Assembly: GCA_035312605.1 (NCBI GenBank)
Contig: DATGBR010000362.1
Location: 1-44,551 of the forward strand
Direction of reading: 5' to 3'
From: Candidatus Methylomirabilota bacterium
Lineage (GTDB): Bacteria; Methylomirabilota; Methylomirabilia; Rokubacteriales; CSP1-6
Length of the DNA stretch: 44,551 nucleotides
Part shown: in pieces, positions 15,855 through 27,334 of the stretch
Numbering within the stretch: the stretch's first letter is position 1
Layout: every line of letters begins with the position of its first letter
Translations under genes and position numbers: made by a program
The notes under the pieces: model-generated
Seen by the model: only the letters and a program-made list of their open reading frames with translations
The model's database searches: none
Told to the model about the DNA's origin: nothing

Positions 15855-17273
15855 CTACTGTCGGCGGCGGAGCATCTGCTGGAGGCTCTGGCGGGTGAGG
15901 CCGAGCTGCTCGGCGGCGCGGGTCTTCGAGCCGCACTCGCGCAGGGCGTCCTCGATCATCCGGCGCTTGAGGGCTTCCACCGCCTCGTTGAGCGTGCGCA
16001 CCGACGGGGTGGCGCCCGCGCCGGCCGCGATGCGCTCCGAGAGGTGGGCGGGGCCGAGCGGCCGACCGTCGTCGGCCAGCGCCAGCGCGCGCTCGATCTC
16101 GTTCTCCAGCTCGCGCACGTTGCCCGGCCAGGGGTACCCGCGCAGCAGGCTCAGGGCCTCCGCTCCCACCGCGGGCACCGCGCGCCGCGCCCGCCGGCAG
16201 GCCTGGCGCAGGAAGTGTTCGGCGAGGGTCGGAATGTCCTCGGCCCGCTCGCGGAGGGGCGGGAGGCGGACCGGGAAGACGCTCAGGCGATAGTAGAGAT
16301 CGCGGCGGAACCGGCCGGCGGCCACGTCGGCCTCGAGATCGGCGTTGGTGGCCGCGATCAGCCGCACGTCCACCCGACGCGTCCCCGAGCCGCCGACCCG
16401 CCGCACCTCCCCCTCCTGCAGCACGCGCAGCAGGCGCAGCTGCATCGCGGGCGAGGTCTCGCCGACCTCGTCCAGGAAGATCGTGCCCCCGTCGGCCTCC
16501 TCGAAGAGGCCCTTGCGCTCGCCGACCGCCCCGGTGAAGGCGCCGCGGGCGTGGCCGAACAGCTCCGACTCGAGCAGCGTGTCGGGCAGCGCCCCGCAGC
16601 TCTGGGCCACGAACGGGCGGGTGCGGCGGGATCCGTTGGCGTGGATGAGGTGGGCGAACAGCTCCTTGCCGGTGCCGGTCTCGCCGAGCAGCAGCACGCT
16701 CGTGTCGCCGTCGAGGACCTTGCGCGCCAGCTCGACCGCGCGGCGCAGCCCGGTCTCGGCGCCGACCAGCTTGTCGAACGAGGCCGGCTTCTCGCGGCCG
16801 GCGGCGGCCTCGCGCCGAAGCGCGTTGTAGGCCAGCTCGAGCTCGTCGCGCAGCCGGGCGTTCTCGCGGGCCAGCCGCCACCGCTCCGCGGCGCGCCGCA
16901 CCACCACCAGCAGCTCGTTCGGATCCCAGGGCTTGGGGACGAAGTGGTAGATCCGGCCGGTGTTGATCGCCTCCATCAGGCTGTCGACGTCGGTGTACGC
17001 GGTCAGCACGATCCGGACCGCGTCCGGCGTCCGCTCCTGGCAGCGTCGCAGCAGCTCGACCCCGGTCATGCCGGGCATGCGGTGGTCGGTCACGATCACC
17101 GCCACGTCCGGCTCCGCGGCGAGTCGCTCGAGGGCCTCCTCGCCATGGCCGGCGCGGAGCACGCGGAACTCGGCGGCGAGGATCGCCTCGAGCGCGTCGA
17201 GCACTCGCGGCTCGTCGTCCACGATCAGGATCGTGGTCTCGTCCGCCGCGCTTCCGGACGCCGGTGCTGTCAC
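15855..17273 (-). CDS. sigma54-dependent response regulator (REC-AAA+-HTH, NtrC family)
   Basis: GTG at 17273 overlaps the upstream TGA (GTGA). REC domain (ILIVDDEP..TDHRMPGMTG), Walker A GETGTGKE, sigma54-contact loop GAFTGA and a C-terminal HTH (TRAAEQLGLTRQSLQQMLRR). Confidence 0.9.
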   Translation of the reverse strand: MTAPASGSAADETTILIVDDEPRVLDALEAILAAEFRVLRAGHGEEALERLAAEPDVAVIVTDHRMPGMTGVELLRRCQERTPDAVRIVLTAYTDVDSLMEAINTGRIYHFVPKPWDPNELLVVVRRAAERWRLARENARLRDELELAYNALRREAAAGREKPASFDKLVGAETGLRRAVELARKVLDGDTSVLLLGETGTGKELFAHLIHANGSRRTRPFVAQSCGALPDTLLESELFGHARGAFTGAVGERKGLFEEADGGTIFLDEVGETSPAMQLRLLRVLQEGEVRRVGGSGTRRVDVRLIAATNADLEADVAAGRFRRDLYYRLSVFPVRLPPLRERAEDIPTLAEHFLRQACRRARRAVPAVGAEALSLLRGYPWPGNVRELENEIERALALADDGRPLGPAHLSERIAAGAGATPSVRTLNEAVEALKRRMIEDALRECGSKTRAAEQLGLTRQSLQQMLRRRQ

Positions 17274-18433
17274 GTCGAGGCCGGGACCGCGACCGCCGGC
17301 TCCCGGAGGGAGCAGATCTCGTACAGCATCTGGCGCTGGCGGATGCCCTTGAGGTGCGGCCGGCCGAGCTCGCGGGCGTCGACGAGATGATTCACCTGGT
17401 GGAAGGTCTCCTCGCCCACGATGATATGCGCGTCGAAGAGGCGTGTCATCCGCTGCATTCGCGACGCCGCGATCATCGCGCGGCCCACCACGATGAGCTC
17501 GCGCCGACGGTCCGAGCCGATCGTCCCCGCCAGCACCCGACCGGAGCTGATGCCGATCCCGATGTCGAAGGTGGGCCGCCCGTCGGCGGTCCAGCGCGCG
17601 GCCAGCCGCCGCACCGCGTCCACCATGTCGGCGGCGGCCCGCACCGCCCGCAGCGCGACGTCGGCCCCCGGCTCCGGGACGCCGAAGAGGGCGACGATCT
17701 CGTCGCCGACCAGCTGCTCCACCGTGCCCTGGTGACGGAAGATCACGTCGATCATCTCGGTGAAGTACTCGTTCAGGAGCTGGATCACCACCGGGGCGGT
17801 CGTCGACTCGATGAGGCGGGTGAAACCGCGGATGTCCGCGAAGAGCACGGTGGCCTCGCGCCAGTCGCCCGGCAGCTCCAGGATGCCGGGATTGGCCACC
17901 GCGAGGTCGACCAGCCGGGGCGACACGTAGCGCTGGAGCTGCGAGCGCACCGACGCCTCCCGGATCAGATCGTCCTGGGCGTCGCGCAGGTGGGTGACCG
18001 CCTGCTCCAGCTCGGCATTCTTGGCCGCGAGATTCCCCAGCAGCGTCTCGCGCTCCCGGCACAGCCGGTGATGTTCGACCGCCCGGCCCACCACGTGACG
18101 GAGCTCGTTCGGATCCCATGGCTTCAGCAGGAAGTGGTAGACCCCGGCCGCGTTGATGGAGTCCATCAGGGCTTCGGTGTCGGTGAAGGCGGTGAGGAGG
18201 ATGCGGACCGTGTCGGGCGCCACGTCACGGCTCCGGGTCAGGAGCTCGGTGCCGGTCAGCCCGGCCATCCGCTGGTCGCTCACCACGACGGCCACGTCCT
18301 CCTCGCGGAGGTGACGGAGGGCGATCTCCGGGCGCTCCGCCCGAAGGATGCGGTGCTCCATCGCGAGGAGCGCCTCGAGCGCGTCGAGGACGCGCGGCTC
18401 GTCGTCGACCAGGAGGACGGTGGCGGGCGTCAT
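17270..18433 (-). CDS. response regulator with a class III adenylate/guanylate cyclase output domain
   Basis: ATG at 18433 overlaps the upstream TGA (ATGA). REC domain (VLLVDDEP..SDQRMAGLTG) followed by a cyclase domain (ATVLFADIRGFT .. LVGDEIVALFG .. GIGISSGRVLAGTIGS). Confidence 0.9.
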   Translation of the reverse strand: MTPATVLLVDDEPRVLDALEALLAMEHRILRAERPEIALRHLREEDVAVVVSDQRMAGLTGTELLTRSRDVAPDTVRILLTAFTDTEALMDSINAAGVYHFLLKPWDPNELRHVVGRAVEHHRLCRERETLLGNLAAKNAELEQAVTHLRDAQDDLIREASVRSQLQRYVSPRLVDLAVANPGILELPGDWREATVLFADIRGFTRLIESTTAPVVIQLLNEYFTEMIDVIFRHQGTVEQLVGDEIVALFGVPEPGADVALRAVRAAADMVDAVRRLAARWTADGRPTFDIGIGISSGRVLAGTIGSDRRRELIVVGRAMIAASRMQRMTRLFDAHIIVGEETFHQVNHLVDARELGRPHLKGIRQRQMLYEICSLREPAVAVPAST

Positions 18434-26243: not shown

Positions 26244-26272
26244 ACGGGCGATCGGCCCGGAGGAGAACCGTC

Positions 26273-27334
26273 ATGTCACCAGAGCAGGCAACGCTGGACC
26301 CGAAGAAGGTGGAGGAGTTCCTCGGCAAGGCGATCTCGGACGTCGCGGCCACGTTCCACGCGGGCCTCGTGCTCATCGGCGACAAGCTCGGCCTGTACCG
26401 GGCGATGGCCGGCGCCGGCCCGATGAGCCCCGCGGACCTGGCCAAGCGCACCGGCGCGCGCGAGCGCTACGTGCGCGAGTGGCTCTCCGCGCAGGCCGCG
26501 GGCGGCTACGTGACCTACGAGCCGGCCACCGGCCGCTTCACGCTGCCCCCGGAGCAGGCCTTCCTGCTGCTCGACGCCGACCTGCCGGGAGCGTTCCAGC
26601 TGAGCATCGGCTCGGTCCGCGACGAGCCGAAGATCTCGGATGCGTTCCGCACCGGCGCGGGAGTGGGCTGGCACGAGCACGATGCGGGGGTGTACGAGGG
26701 CTGCGAGCGGTTCTTCCGTCCGGGCTACGCCATGAATCTGGTCAGCCAGTGGATCCCCGCCCTCGACGGGGTGAAGGCGCGGCTCGACGCCGGCGGGCGG
26801 GTTGCCGACGTGGGCTGCGGCCACGGCGCGTCCAGCATCATCATGGCGCAGGCCTTCCCCCGCGCGAGCATCACCGGCTTCGACTATCATCCCCCCTCCA
26901 TCCAGGCCGCGCGGCAGGCGGCCGACAAGGCCGGGGTGGGGGACCGGTTGTCGTTCGAGGTGACGGCGGCCAAGGCGTACCCCGGCACCGGCTACGACCT
27001 GGTCACGTTCTTCGACTGCCTGCACGACATGGGCGATCCGGTGGGAGCGGCGCGCCACGTGCGGCAATCGCTGGCTCCGGGCGGGGTCTGGATGCTCGTG
27101 GAGCCCTTCGCCAACGACCGGCTGGAGGACAACCTCAACCCGGTCGGTCGCCTCTACTACTCGGCGTCGACGCTGCTCTGCACGCCCGCCTCGCTCAGCC
27201 AGGAGGTGGGGCTCGCGCTGGGTGCCCAGGCGGGGGAGAAGCGGCTGCGCGAGGTCCTGACCGAGGCGGGCTTCACCCGGATACGCCGGGTGGCGCAGAC
27301 CCCCGCCAACATGATCCTCGAAGTCCGCGCGTAA
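26273..27334 (+). CDS. class I SAM-dependent methyltransferase
   Basis: ATG at 26273 with a GGAGGAG RBS. Motif I VADVGCGHGASS and FDCLHDMGDP, with an N-terminal ~150-aa helical (winged-helix-like) extension. Confidence 0.9.
   Translation: MSPEQATLDPKKVEEFLGKAISDVAATFHAGLVLIGDKLGLYRAMAGAGPMSPADLAKRTGARERYVREWLSAQAAGGYVTYEPATGRFTLPPEQAFLLLDADLPGAFQLSIGSVRDEPKISDAFRTGAGVGWHEHDAGVYEGCERFFRPGYAMNLVSQWIPALDGVKARLDAGGRVADVGCGHGASSIIMAQAFPRASITGFDYHPPSIQAARQAADKAGVGDRLSFEVTAAKAYPGTGYDLVTFFDCLHDMGDPVGAARHVRQSLAPGGVWMLVEPFANDRLEDNLNPVGRLYYSASTLLCTPASLSQEVGLALGAQAGEKRLREVLTEAGFTRIRRVAQTPANMILEVRA

Follow-up and report, generated by a model that had tools for sequence, protein, structure and literature searches.

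The locus described here probably encodes a positively autoregulated, sigma-54-dependent two-component module together with a cargo of enzymes. It comes from a soil Rokubacteria/Methylomirabilota genome, that of an uncultured bacterium; the window, meaning the whole stretch of DNA analysed, is 44,551 nt long. An activator, its histidine kinase and a second response regulator appear to lie inside their own regulon, served by divergent sigma-54 promoters. This arrangement had been proposed in a sequence-only reading, and is supported by the conservation of the promoter elements, by upstream palindromes and by gene order. The predicted regulatory wiring is well supported, and the comparative data strengthen that earlier reading of it. 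More tentatively, the enzymes may form an inducible system for modifying a small molecule that is hydrophobic or aromatic, for example an antibiotic, a lactone or a phenolic.

Gene organisation and domains

Genes were called from third-position GC and domains were identified using Pfam; the start of the plus-strand hydrolase was taken from metagenome gene calls and the sequence. The nine domain assignments of the sequence-only reading were all confirmed at the positions below, V4R alone falling below threshold. The genes and associated features are as follows.

23463–24473, minus strand: ROK-family sugar kinase without HTH, first gene of its operon (Pfam ROK, 1e-51; ROK_glcA_fam, 8.5e-48)
21389–23458, minus strand: fusion of an alpha/beta-hydrolase and a GT1-type GT-B glycosyltransferase, 689 aa (Pfam Abhydrolase_1 and Glyco_tran_28_C)
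21290–21388, minus strand: 3′-terminal remnant of a CMD/AhpD-like gene (24 aa aligned at 79% identity to the CMD C-terminus of locus L004, E = 1e-11)
20724–21287, minus strand: OsmC-like protein of the one-Cys subfamily (Pfam OsmC, 7e-19; PDB 2opl, 1e-14)
18430–20712, minus strand: sensor histidine kinase (Pfam GAF, HisKA and HATPase_c; N-terminal V4R/H-NOX-fold Cys3 domain, aa 1–190)
17270–18433, minus strand: second response regulator, REC plus class III cyclase-homology domain (Pfam Response_reg and Guanylate_cyc)
15855–17273, minus strand: enhancer-binding response regulator (EBP), REC, AAA+ (GAFTGA) and HTH_8 (Sigma54_activat, 1e-66; Response_reg, 9e-21; HTH_8, 1e-6)
24955–25434, plus strand: small cupin, its N-terminus resembling a signal peptide, with HxH..E..H metal-binding motifs (Pfam Cupin_2, 4e-7; translation)
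25437–26243, plus strand: stand-alone alpha/beta hydrolase (Pfam Abhydrolase_6 and Abhydrolase_1)
26273–27334, plus strand: Rv2258c/TnmJ-type SAM methyltransferase with an N-terminal winged helix (Pfam HTH_65 and Methyltransf families)
27341–27375: strong hairpin between the convergent methyltransferase and amidohydrolase genes (dG −33.6 kcal/mol, z = −6.7)

The 4-nt overlaps between the kinase and REC-cyclase genes (ATGA, 18433–18430) and between the REC-cyclase and activator genes (GTGA, 17273–17270) are real. The 100-nt "gap" that separates the fusion gene from the OsmC gene is, judging from its alignment to the L004 gene, the leftover of a deleted gene; the intact L004 gene has a CMD Pfam match, and relatives carry an intact CMD/AhpD-like gene and a second paralogue of the fusion. 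The hairpin is likely to mark the end of the plus-strand operon.

Sigma-54 promoters and upstream palindromes

The two near-consensus sigma-54 elements noted earlier, one pointing each way in the 481-nt spacer that ends at 24954, were confirmed. When no more than one mismatch to TGGCAC-N5-TTGCW is allowed, the 44.5 kb window holds exactly two matches, against 0.62 expected; both lie inside the spacer, each aimed at its own operon. Scaled to the spacer, the expectation is about 0.007 sites, and by our own arithmetic two correctly oriented sites would arise by chance with a probability of about 1e-5. At two mismatches the consensus shows no enrichment (13 sites against an expectation of 12.6), so the sigma-54 signal depends on the two best sites. 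The elements in the spacer are listed here.

24487–24502, minus strand (24502 to 24487): putative sigma-54 -24/-12 promoter of the ROK operon, TGGCACACGGCTTGCG (consensus scan; conservation)
24857–24872, plus strand: putative sigma-54 -24/-12 promoter of the cupin operon, GGGCACGCCGCTTGCT (consensus scan; conservation)
24546–24560: upstream site UAS1, a palindrome (GCAAC-CCGAC-CTTGC) whose centre lies 51 nt ahead of the ROK -24 element
24612–24661: two degenerate further sites (24612–24626 and 24647–24661) with conserved GCAAG half-sites
24800–24814: UAS for the cupin promoter, a palindrome (GCAAC-GCCAT-CTTGC) whose centre lies 50 nt ahead of the -24 element
24744–24769: conserved box TGCG..GCCAA..CGAAATCAAG, its columns at least 85% identical across 14 genomes

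Both -24/-12 elements show 100% column identity in these 14 genomes, the spacer being otherwise 63% identical, and on the cupin side GGCACG-N4-TTGC is invariant. On the ROK side, TGGCAC-N5-TTGC with a variable N5 is present in all 24 loci that cover this point, at ROK identities down to 46%, and is the sole perfect site in each locus of approximately 22 kb. Transcription of the cupin operon is predicted to start at about 24883, which leaves roughly 72 nt of 5′ UTR containing an AGGAGGA Shine-Dalgarno sequence. For the ROK operon the predicted start, at about 24476, is 3 nt ahead of the ATG; this leader of about 3 nt places no Shine-Dalgarno sequence in the transcript, and leaderless-type translation or another start would be needed. 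We found no RpoN box among the loci examined; in surveyed genomes, EBPs always co-occur with sigma-54 (PMC12316311).

A conserved palindrome, GCAAG-N5-CTTGC, has its centre some 50 nt upstream of each -24 element and is likely to be the binding site of the activator, the link between the two being correlative. The position of UAS1 is fixed (-48 to -53) across all Rokubacteria loci, and the geometry of the cupin UAS is the same in 10 of 13 close relatives. The degenerate sites lie near -117 and -152 relative to the ROK promoter, where other loci have full palindromes at -117 or about -152, and they coincide with conserved islands (24613–17, 24644–51 and 24657–61). Relative to the predicted ROK transcription start, the palindromic sites are at about -76, -143 and -178. 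The palindrome has 85 matches in 737 kb, 48 of them in the 400 nt that precede the ROK promoter. When metagenomes were scanned for the composite of palindrome and promoter, 57 of the 68 assessable high-GC matches headed the ROK gene or the cupin/hydrolase/methyltransferase genes; match length peaked at 71–73 nt in high-GC sequence and was spread evenly in low-GC sequence. One extra gene headed by the composite encodes a dihaem peroxidase/RoxA-like protein.

Conservation in related genomes

The genes for the ROK kinase, the hydrolase::GT1 fusion, the OsmC-like protein, the kinase, the REC-cyclase and the activator move together, in conserved order, in about 20 related genomes, and this synteny is maintained down to 67% identity of the fusion. 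This six-gene minus-strand operon is the only conserved unit. The earlier proposal of a regulon on both sides stands for the minus-strand operon, and for the cupin operon only in the close clade, where the cupin, hydrolase and methyltransferase genes lie under the same composite; no activator or promoter sites were seen on the other flank, which carries LLM, glyoxalase and SDR genes. Linkage of the methyltransferase to the fusion occurs in three different arrangements in two phyla. Relatives in Actinomycetota have P450, FMO, SnoaL, AMP-ligase and LAL-type regulator genes as neighbours, and neither the EBP nor the composite was found in them.

Signalling proteins and proposed mechanism

The kinase has two predicted transmembrane helices at approximately residues 199–245, read from its sequence. 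Its sensor had been described as V4R-like. The Pfam match is below threshold (V4R, E = 0.15; XylR_N likewise), but the description is upheld by structure and by a Cys motif: the AlphaFold2 model of residues 1–200 (pLDDT 88.5) matches H-NOX proteins (TM 0.55–0.69), MopR, DmpR and Bet3 in Foldseek, and C149, E172, C175 and C183 are conserved, the Cys cluster being invariant. The 26/8 spacing of the three Cys residues equals that of the MopR zinc ligands C155/C181/C189 (PMC9556785). No invariant His or YxSxR motif was found in the sensor, and haem binding is thus unlikely.

The REC-cyclase matches Cya2 (7e-29) and CyaB (1e-25), which agrees with the REC-cyclase call of the earlier reading. The second-messenger output proposed for it is uncertain because the catalytic Asn is missing (Asn to Ile) and the specificity residues are non-canonical (Lys/Glu to Gln, Asp/Thr to Ile), substitutions conserved in 16 orthologues. 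Its REC domain is 56% identical to that of the EBP. The translated activator contains GAFTGA, Walker A and Walker B motifs, GAFTGA being retained in all 20 orthologues.

We propose that the membrane-anchored kinase would sense a cytoplasmic or membrane-borne ligand through its N-terminal domain, its GAF domain or both, and would phosphorylate the two paralogous receivers. The phosphorylated activator would assemble on the palindromes and remodel sigma-54 RNA polymerase at both promoters, raising the levels of the activator itself, the kinase and the enzymes. The REC-cyclase branch would form a second output of uncertain chemistry.

Enzymes and their possible function

The ROK protein contains the EIGH and CxCGxxGC motifs in its translation. 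In the fusion, S95/D209/H237 and a GLGH motif are conserved. The N-terminal half matches esterases, perhydrolases and lactonases in fold, nearest to aryl-esterases and lactonases, and the nearest folds to the C-terminal half are natural-product GT1 enzymes (kitacinnamycin GT, CalG, OleD and YjiC). The model has a pLDDT of 71 overall, with a low-confidence lid region. The nearest PDB entries to the methyltransferase are TnmJ (6e-61) and Rv2258c (1e-44). Modification could comprise hydrolysis of an ester or lactone, glycosylation using a sugar whose activation goes through the ROK kinase, and O-methylation. Such a detoxifying role would agree with the fold matches and with the Actinomycetota gene contexts; the substrate is a guess, because no characterised homologue of the fusion was found.

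The same wiring might instead respond to oxidative, peroxide or electrophile stress, with the sensor's Cys3(Glu) metal site being oxidised or losing its metal, and with the OsmC-like protein, ancestral AhpD/CMD-like thiol-peroxidase-type proteins and a perhydrolase-like hydrolase as the cargo switched on. We consider this unlikely. The invariant Cys cluster would suit it, as would the precedents of Myxococcus PexR, a sigma-54 activator that senses H2O2 by a Zn/Fe site, and of FisR, which senses reactive sulfur species by Cys residues (PMC12754779); however, the homologous MopR zinc site is described as structural and not as the ligand site (PMC9556785). All loci have an OsmC-like gene and several have a CMD/AhpD gene, whose remnant is still in the window, but the CMD gene has been lost in the lineage of the window. 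Peroxide reduction by OsmC, suggested earlier, is uncertain because there is one catalytic Cys instead of two, the second (resolving) Cys being replaced by Ser in all orthologues. The fusion hydrolase half is nearest to perhydrolases and cofactor-free haloperoxidases, and the composite also heads the dihaem peroxidase/RoxA-like gene, yet the ROK kinase, GT1 and methyltransferase have no obvious role in peroxide defence.

Still less probable, in our view, is that the enzymes are biosynthetic and make a glycosylated (in the close clade also methylated) lipid or secondary metabolite, timed by the two-component system. RhlA and RhlB pair a hydrolase-fold acyltransferase with a glycosyltransferase to make a glycolipid, and a hydrolase-fold domain fused to a GT-B domain resembles this logic, but RhlA and RhlB are absent from the family and structure matches. 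The ROK kinase could supply an NDP-sugar pool, TnmJ is a biosynthetic tailoring enzyme, and the Actinomycetota neighbourhoods look like biosynthetic clusters; against this, about 40 loci contain no PKS, NRPS, terpene synthase or NDP-sugar synthesis genes, and the conserved unit has only three enzymes besides its regulators.

It is very improbable that the palindrome is the operator of another regulator and that a sigma-70-type polymerase reads the operons: the ROK-side element is unusually near the start codon and the scan shows no enrichment at two mismatches, but GG and GC, spaced by exactly 10 nt, stay the same in every genome while the bases between and around them change, the composite is always found with an operon encoding a GAFTGA activator and is missing from relatives in Actinomycetota, a phylum that rarely has rpoN, and the spacer yielded no sigma-70-like promoter.

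Comparison with known systems

Taken as an inducible modification system under sigma-54 control, the locus shares features with several known groups. The fusion has weak family matches to the macrolide esterases EstT/EstX (N-terminal half) and to MGT (C-terminal half), and its structural neighbours are aryl-esterases/lactonases and natural-product GT1 enzymes, OleD, YjiC and CalG among them. Unlike the antibiotic-inactivating enzymes, it places both predicted activities in one 689-aa polypeptide; its family scores are all far below curated cut-offs, and the usual HG oxyanion motif of the esterases is replaced.

H-NOX proteins are the best whole-domain structural matches of the sensor, which here is joined to the kinase via two transmembrane helices and does not form a protein of its own. 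Within H-NOX/HnoK networks a single kinase feeds several response regulators, one of which has a nucleotide-signalling domain, and the present locus appears alike. The combination of an HNOB-like secondary structure and a V4R-type three-Cys cluster, seen in the sensor, is also described for MetOD1 of archaeal response regulators (PMC5847659).

In fold, the sensor groups with those of XylR/DmpR/MopR/PoxR (Foldseek: MopR 5kbg/5kbi, DmpR 6iy8), although it superposes better on H-NOX as a whole domain, and it shares the three-Cys spacing of MopR. These regulators likewise direct a sigma-54 output to a divergently arranged enzyme operon. In contrast to them, the sensor here is on a separate membrane-anchored histidine kinase and not on the AAA+ protein, and the predicted targets do not encode ring-hydroxylating enzymes of catabolism.

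The activator has the REC-AAA+-HTH architecture and GAFTGA motif of NtrC/AtoC/ZraR, which are its best NCBIfam matches, all below equivalog cut-offs. The dyad-symmetric upstream sites resemble those of NtrC (TGCACC-N5-GGTGCA), although the palindrome sequence differs. As in the NtrB/NtrC class, the kinase and regulator genes lie within the operon that they are predicted to activate; the locus differs in having a V4R/H-NOX-fold Cys3 plus GAF sensor rather than a PAS or periplasmic one, in its additional paralogous REC protein with a cyclase-homology domain, and in a cargo of ROK, hydrolase::GT1 and OsmC-like proteins in place of nitrogen, acetoacetate or zinc functions.

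Gene content of the locus

Genes were called by third-position GC, and each was then checked with Pfam. All nine genes proposed in the sequence-only reading are present as described there, in a window of 71% G+C. They form two divergent operons on either side of a 481-nt spacer (24474-24954): six genes on the minus strand, beginning with a ROK sugar kinase, and three on the plus strand, beginning with a cupin.

Genes of the two operons, minus-strand genes in order of transcription
23463-24473, minus strand, ROK sugar kinase (first)
21389-23458, minus strand, alpha/beta-hydrolase::glycosyltransferase fusion, 689 aa (second)
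20724-21287, minus strand, OsmC-like protein (third)
18430-20712, minus strand, GAF-HisKA-HATPase kinase (fourth)
17270-18433, minus strand, REC-cyclase (fifth)
15855-17273, minus strand, REC-AAA+(GAFTGA)-HTH_8 activator (sixth)
24955-25434, plus strand, cupin with a signal-peptide-like N-terminus
25437-26243, plus strand, alpha/beta hydrolase
26273-27334, plus strand, HTH_65 and SAM methyltransferase

The last three minus-strand genes are indeed chained by ATGA and GTGA overlaps, and the plus-strand operon is closed by a strong hairpin (27341-27375, z = -6.7). The remainder of the window consists of unrelated metabolic genes, and an Rfam search of the whole window identified no RNA families. 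A class I tRNA synthetase of the Trp/Tyr type (6351-7358, plus strand; PF00579 at 4e-64) was overlooked by the GC3-based gene calling; this stretch is approximately 65% GC, against 70-72% around it. A second large hybrid kinase of 912 aa (31499-34237, minus strand; GAF-GAF-PAS-HisKA-HATPase-REC) is syntenic in close relatives, and has neither a sigma-54 site nor a copy of the palindrome described below near it.

Predicted sigma-54 promoters

The two sigma-54 elements that had been proposed, each directed at its own operon, both lie inside the spacer. With up to one mismatch, the motif TGGCAC-N5-TTGCW occurs at these two sites in the 44.5 kb window, against 0.62 expected. At two mismatches the motif is not enriched in the window, and comparative evidence is therefore needed for the promoters.

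Regulatory elements in the spacer
24502-24487, minus strand, sigma-54 element on the ROK side, GG and GC spaced by exactly 10 nt
24857-24872, plus strand, sigma-54 element on the cupin side, GG and GC spaced by exactly 10 nt
24546-24560, palindrome on the ROK side, 51 nt before the ROK -24 element
24800-24814, palindrome on the cupin side, 50 nt before the cupin -24 element

Using the fusion as a probe, we retrieved 41 genome loci, mostly from MAGs labelled as Rokubacteria/Methylomirabilota, a phylum with genomes of 6-8 Mb and 66-71% GC (PMC5712423), plus identical soil-metagenome contigs; these matches identify where the window comes from. The ROK-side element TGGCAC-N5-TTGC is directly upstream in all 24 loci that span the ROK start, with the N5 free to vary, and is kept even where the ROK protein is only 46-51% identical; in one locus (L012) it heads an additional gene, which in turn precedes ROK. 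It is the sole perfect match per locus of about 22 kb. The cupin-side element is present in 14/14 loci. When 14 close relatives were aligned, the mean identity of the spacer was 63%, whereas both promoters were 100% identical in their -24 and -12 blocks and 69-76% identical in their N5 segments. On this comparative evidence, the two predicted promoters are not chance matches.

A survey of genomes found that sigma-54 activators always co-occur with sigma-54 (PMC12316311). No RpoN box was found in the approximately 0.78 Mb of retrieved loci, a search of the available literature library for sigma-54 or RpoN in Rokubacteria/Methylomirabilota found nothing, and a scan of the spacer for sigma-70 promoters and terminators gave nothing useful.

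The predicted transcription starts are near 24476 for the ROK operon and near 24883 for the cupin operon. On the ROK side, 14 nt separate the end of the -12 element from the ATG (24473-24502, minus strand), a spacing retained in most close relatives; the predicted leader is only about 3 nt long, and the transcript would lack a Shine-Dalgarno sequence. The model thus predicts that the ROK transcript would be a sigma-54-driven, effectively leaderless mRNA, and a leader this short is an open weakness of the sigma-54 model. In distant loci the predicted ROK leaders are about 7-13 nt. The spacer also holds a conserved box, TGCG..GCCAA..CGAAATCAAG (24744-24769; at least 85% identity in 14 genomes), which is neither a sigma-54 element nor a copy of the palindrome, and fits the IHF consensus poorly.

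A palindrome at fixed distance from the promoters

The ROK upstream regions have in common a palindrome, GCAAG-N5-CTTGC. In every locus its centre lies 48-53 nt before the -24 element, counted from the element's first base. Second copies occur at about -117 or about -152. Allowing up to one mismatch, 85 matches were found in 737 kb, 48 of them no more than 400 nt upstream of a ROK promoter; the only matches in the window are those at 24546-24560 and 24800-24814. Their distances of 51 and 50 nt give the ROK and cupin promoters the same geometry. The palindrome is a candidate binding site for the activator.

We then scanned a metagenome collection for the composite of palindrome and sigma-54 element, which gave matches in at least 120 contigs. 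Among these listed matches, in contigs of at least 66% GC, the composite heads ROK and the fusion in 34 cases, cupin/hydrolase/methyltransferase in 23, a PAS-kinase in one and other genes in 10, with four too short to assess. Of the 58 known cases listed, 53 have a match length of 71-73 nt; the 58 listed matches in lower-GC contigs are evenly distributed over 67-76 nt, as would be expected by chance.

Other genes headed by a composite were seen in L012 (1930-3581), L023 (7485-8469), L112, L070, L048 and L145. The products comprise a 524-aa secreted protein with no Pfam match, a secreted Lcl_C-domain protein, a dihaem CxxCH protein (RoxA/peroxidase-like), DUF1326, and two further secreted proteins, one with a CHRD domain and one a beta-propeller. 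For most of them, as for the cupin, an extracytoplasmic location is predicted. In L112 the composite concerned is a second one, some 1.9 kb upstream of the one that heads ROK. The search window of -44 to -56 misses a methyltransferase-specific promoter in two relatives, which was found by eye (minus strand in both; L001, about 6660-6960, and L024, about 6720-7020). Here the methyltransferase has its own sigma-54-like TGGCAC-N5-TGGCA / TCGCA element within an enlarged hydrolase-methyltransferase spacer, and two perfect palindromes upstream, the nearest at about 70 nt.

Activator, paired receivers and cyclase

The activator has an AAA+ domain (PF00158 at 1e-66) with Walker A, Walker B and a GAFTGA loop that is present in all orthologues, an N-terminal receiver with its acceptor Asp (PF00072, 9e-21) and a C-terminal Fis-type HTH (PF02954, 1e-6). 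Its receiver and that of the REC-cyclase are paralogues, 56% identical, which suggests that one kinase feeds both. For both receivers the best NCBIfam match is the 'NosR family' model, which describes a regulator of the REC - c-di-GMP phosphodiesterase type (E 1e-44 to 1e-46, REC domain and linker covered), and their common KPWDxxEL motif places them in an RpfG-like rather than an NtrC subtype.

A second-messenger output had been proposed for the REC-cyclase. The domain has a true class III fold (PF00211 2e-19, Cya2 7e-29, CyaB 1e-25) and retains both metal-binding Asp residues and the Arg, but the full catalytic set and the canonical substrate-specifying pair are missing: in all 16 orthologues the catalytic Asn is Ile, and the specificity positions Lys/Glu and Asp/Thr/Gly are Gln and Ile respectively. 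The output is uncertain because of these replacements.

Sensor domain of the kinase

The first 190 residues of the kinase, which are followed by two hydrophobic helices, have no significant match in Pfam or, by single sequence or profile, in the PDB. The V4R model gave E=0.15 and 12.6 bits, below its gathering cut-off of 31, and the Pfam XylR_N model gave no match. The domain was predicted by AlphaFold with a pLDDT of 88.5, and in a Foldseek search with this model the top 30 matches were H-NOX proteins (E down to 1e-5, TM 0.55-0.69), with MopR, DmpR and Bet3 further down the list; these proteins share a single fold group. An alignment of 23 sensor sequences contains neither an invariant His nor the YxSxR haem-propionate motif, which makes haem unlikely and led us to reject a canonical haem-binding H-NOX.

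Residues C149, C175 and C183 vary little or not at all, and E172 is nearly invariant. The 26/8 spacing of the cysteines equals that of the zinc ligands of MopR, C155/C181/C189 (PMC9556785). The main rival explanation for the signal makes use of a putative Cys-metal site here: the kinase would sense an oxidant or electrophile there, with PexR and FisR as precedents (PMC12754779).

In a profile search the sensor domain was represented by 973 clusters, and its distant members have kinase, GGDEF, HD-GYP, EAL or cyclase domains as fusion partners; 7 of 61 distant members match the V4R model at 1e-3 or better. The label 'V4R-like' is justified in the sense that the domain belongs to a broad sensor family, itself uncharacterised.

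Enzymes of the operons

The ROK protein (336 aa; PF00480 at 1e-51) has the phosphate-loop motif GVDVGAST, the ExGH-type motif GEIGH and the zinc motif CVCGSVGC, and no N-terminal HTH. In the fusion (model pLDDT 71), the hydrolase half retains its Ser-Asp-His triad in both phyla compared and matches aryl-esterases, perhydrolases and lactonases. The GT-B glycosyltransferase half has the catalytic motif GLGH at 301-304 and the sugar-nucleotide motif VQGGLTTTMEL conserved across the two phyla. Its fold matches 6j31, CalG1/CalG4, 2iya and 6kqx, and the structures nearest to it are natural-product transferases of the GT1 type, namely kitacinnamycin GT, CalG1/CalG4, OleD-type and YjiC; a MurG/GT28 identity was rejected on these grounds, despite the Pfam label Glyco_tran_28_C. 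None of the relatives of the fusion carries a name beyond automatic annotation. The methyltransferase is closest to TnmJ and Rv2258c.

The beta-ketoadipate enzymes PcaD/PcaC were considered because of the enol-lactonase matches and a neighbouring CMD gene, and rejected on scores far under the equivalog cut-offs. In the OsmC-like protein the first Cys (AGC) is invariant and the second position is Ser in 28/28 sequences, as in PDB 2opl; OsmC/Ohr thiol peroxidases, in contrast, have two conserved catalytic Cys.

A biosynthetic role for these enzymes is considered less likely, because no locus has scaffold-forming genes alongside the operon.

Conservation in relatives

Whether the block travels together had been suggested as a check. 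The six-gene minus-strand operon does so and is conserved down to 67% fusion identity. For the cupin-hydrolase-methyltransferase operon, as for the other flanking genes, synteny is confined to close relatives, with at least 76% identity of the fusion. In two loci (L011, 12672; L034, 3253) a methyltransferase homologue, 53-54% identical, lies within the operon between OsmC and the kinase, and in Solirubrobacterales the methyltransferase is directly upstream of the fusion on the same strand. By gene order, the methyltransferase is repeatedly linked to the fusion, in different arrangements.

Actinomycetota have fusion relatives that are 39-53% identical, at loci where no kinase, cyclase, activator or composite was found. 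The neighbours here are LAL-type LuxR regulators, P450, flavin monooxygenase, SnoaL-like and OsmC-like genes, and Actinobacteria seldom carry rpoN (PMC12316311). The enzyme core is thus found beside different regulators in different phyla. At five loci (L027-L029, L033, L040) the fusion homologue adjoins a LAL-type regulator of about 900 aa (AAA_16-TPR-GerE), and in L033 and L040 it follows the OsmC-like, flavin monooxygenase, SnoaL-like and P450 genes.

The apparent gap between the fusion and OsmC (21290-21388, minus strand) codes for the C-terminal end, about 24 residues, of a CMD/AhpD-like protein. In L003, L004, L020, L024 and L025 this gene is intact and is accompanied by a second fusion paralogue, about 44% identical; compared with these relatives, the lineage of the window has deleted about 2.3 kb.

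Five MAGs labelled Verrucomicrobiia, 'beta proteobacterium' or Deferrimicrobiaceae (L004, L009, L016, L018, L037) have a fusion gene that is 72-94% identical to those of Rokubacteria. The near-identical synteny of L004, and the parts of the operon spanned by each of L016 and L037, suggest mis-binned contigs. L009 and L018 have the fusion by itself, beside a selenium-binding-protein (SBP56) gene.

Proposed wiring and comparison with known systems

The conservation of promoters, palindromes and operon across relatives supports the regulatory interpretation originally offered. We consider it likely that the locus is a positively autoregulated sigma-54 two-component system controlling operons of small-molecule-modifying enzymes. 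That the induced enzymes serve detoxification is a more tentative proposal.

A further reading, which we regard as rather unlikely, is that a phenol sensor has been re-wired as a two-component system. A Cys3 ligand sensor of the V4R/H-NOX type would have been relocated onto a membrane kinase, which would drive the sigma-54 activator and the cyclase-homology regulator in parallel. The Gln/Ile pair and the Asn to Ile change might then mean that the regulator makes an unusual nucleotide or acts non-catalytically, and the cyclase regulator would possibly feed back on the GAF domain of the kinase itself. The conserved cargo polypeptide would open an ester or lactone and then glycosylate the product. 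If true, this would be a previously undescribed way for one enzyme to inactivate antibiotics or signals of the lactone type, in a phylum of soil bacteria, the Rokubacteria, that is abundant but has never been brought into culture.

For the preferred sigma-54 wiring, the locus provides a complete cis/trans map (promoter, candidate activator-binding palindrome, kinase and two regulators), which could serve as an inducible switch or biosensor in a heterologous host. It also gives a defined regulatory context to two uncharacterised families, the widespread V4R-like sensors (about 970 cluster representatives) and the abundant hydrolase::GT1 fusions (>2,600 relatives).

Existing concepts are not overturned by the locus. 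As with NtrC-type activators, there are predicted dyad-symmetric upstream activating sequences, which here keep a constant position of -48 to -53 relative to each of the two -24 elements. MetOD1, described by Galperin and co-workers, is a comparable HNOB-fold/V4R-Cys hybrid (PMC5847659). In XylR, DmpR and MopR the sensor is fused directly to the AAA+ activator, whereas here it forms the N-terminus of a histidine kinase. The locus is also a clean example of regulator swapping, since one phylum has the enzyme core under a predicted sigma-54 two-component system, and Actinomycetota have the same core adjacent to LAL-type LuxR regulators.
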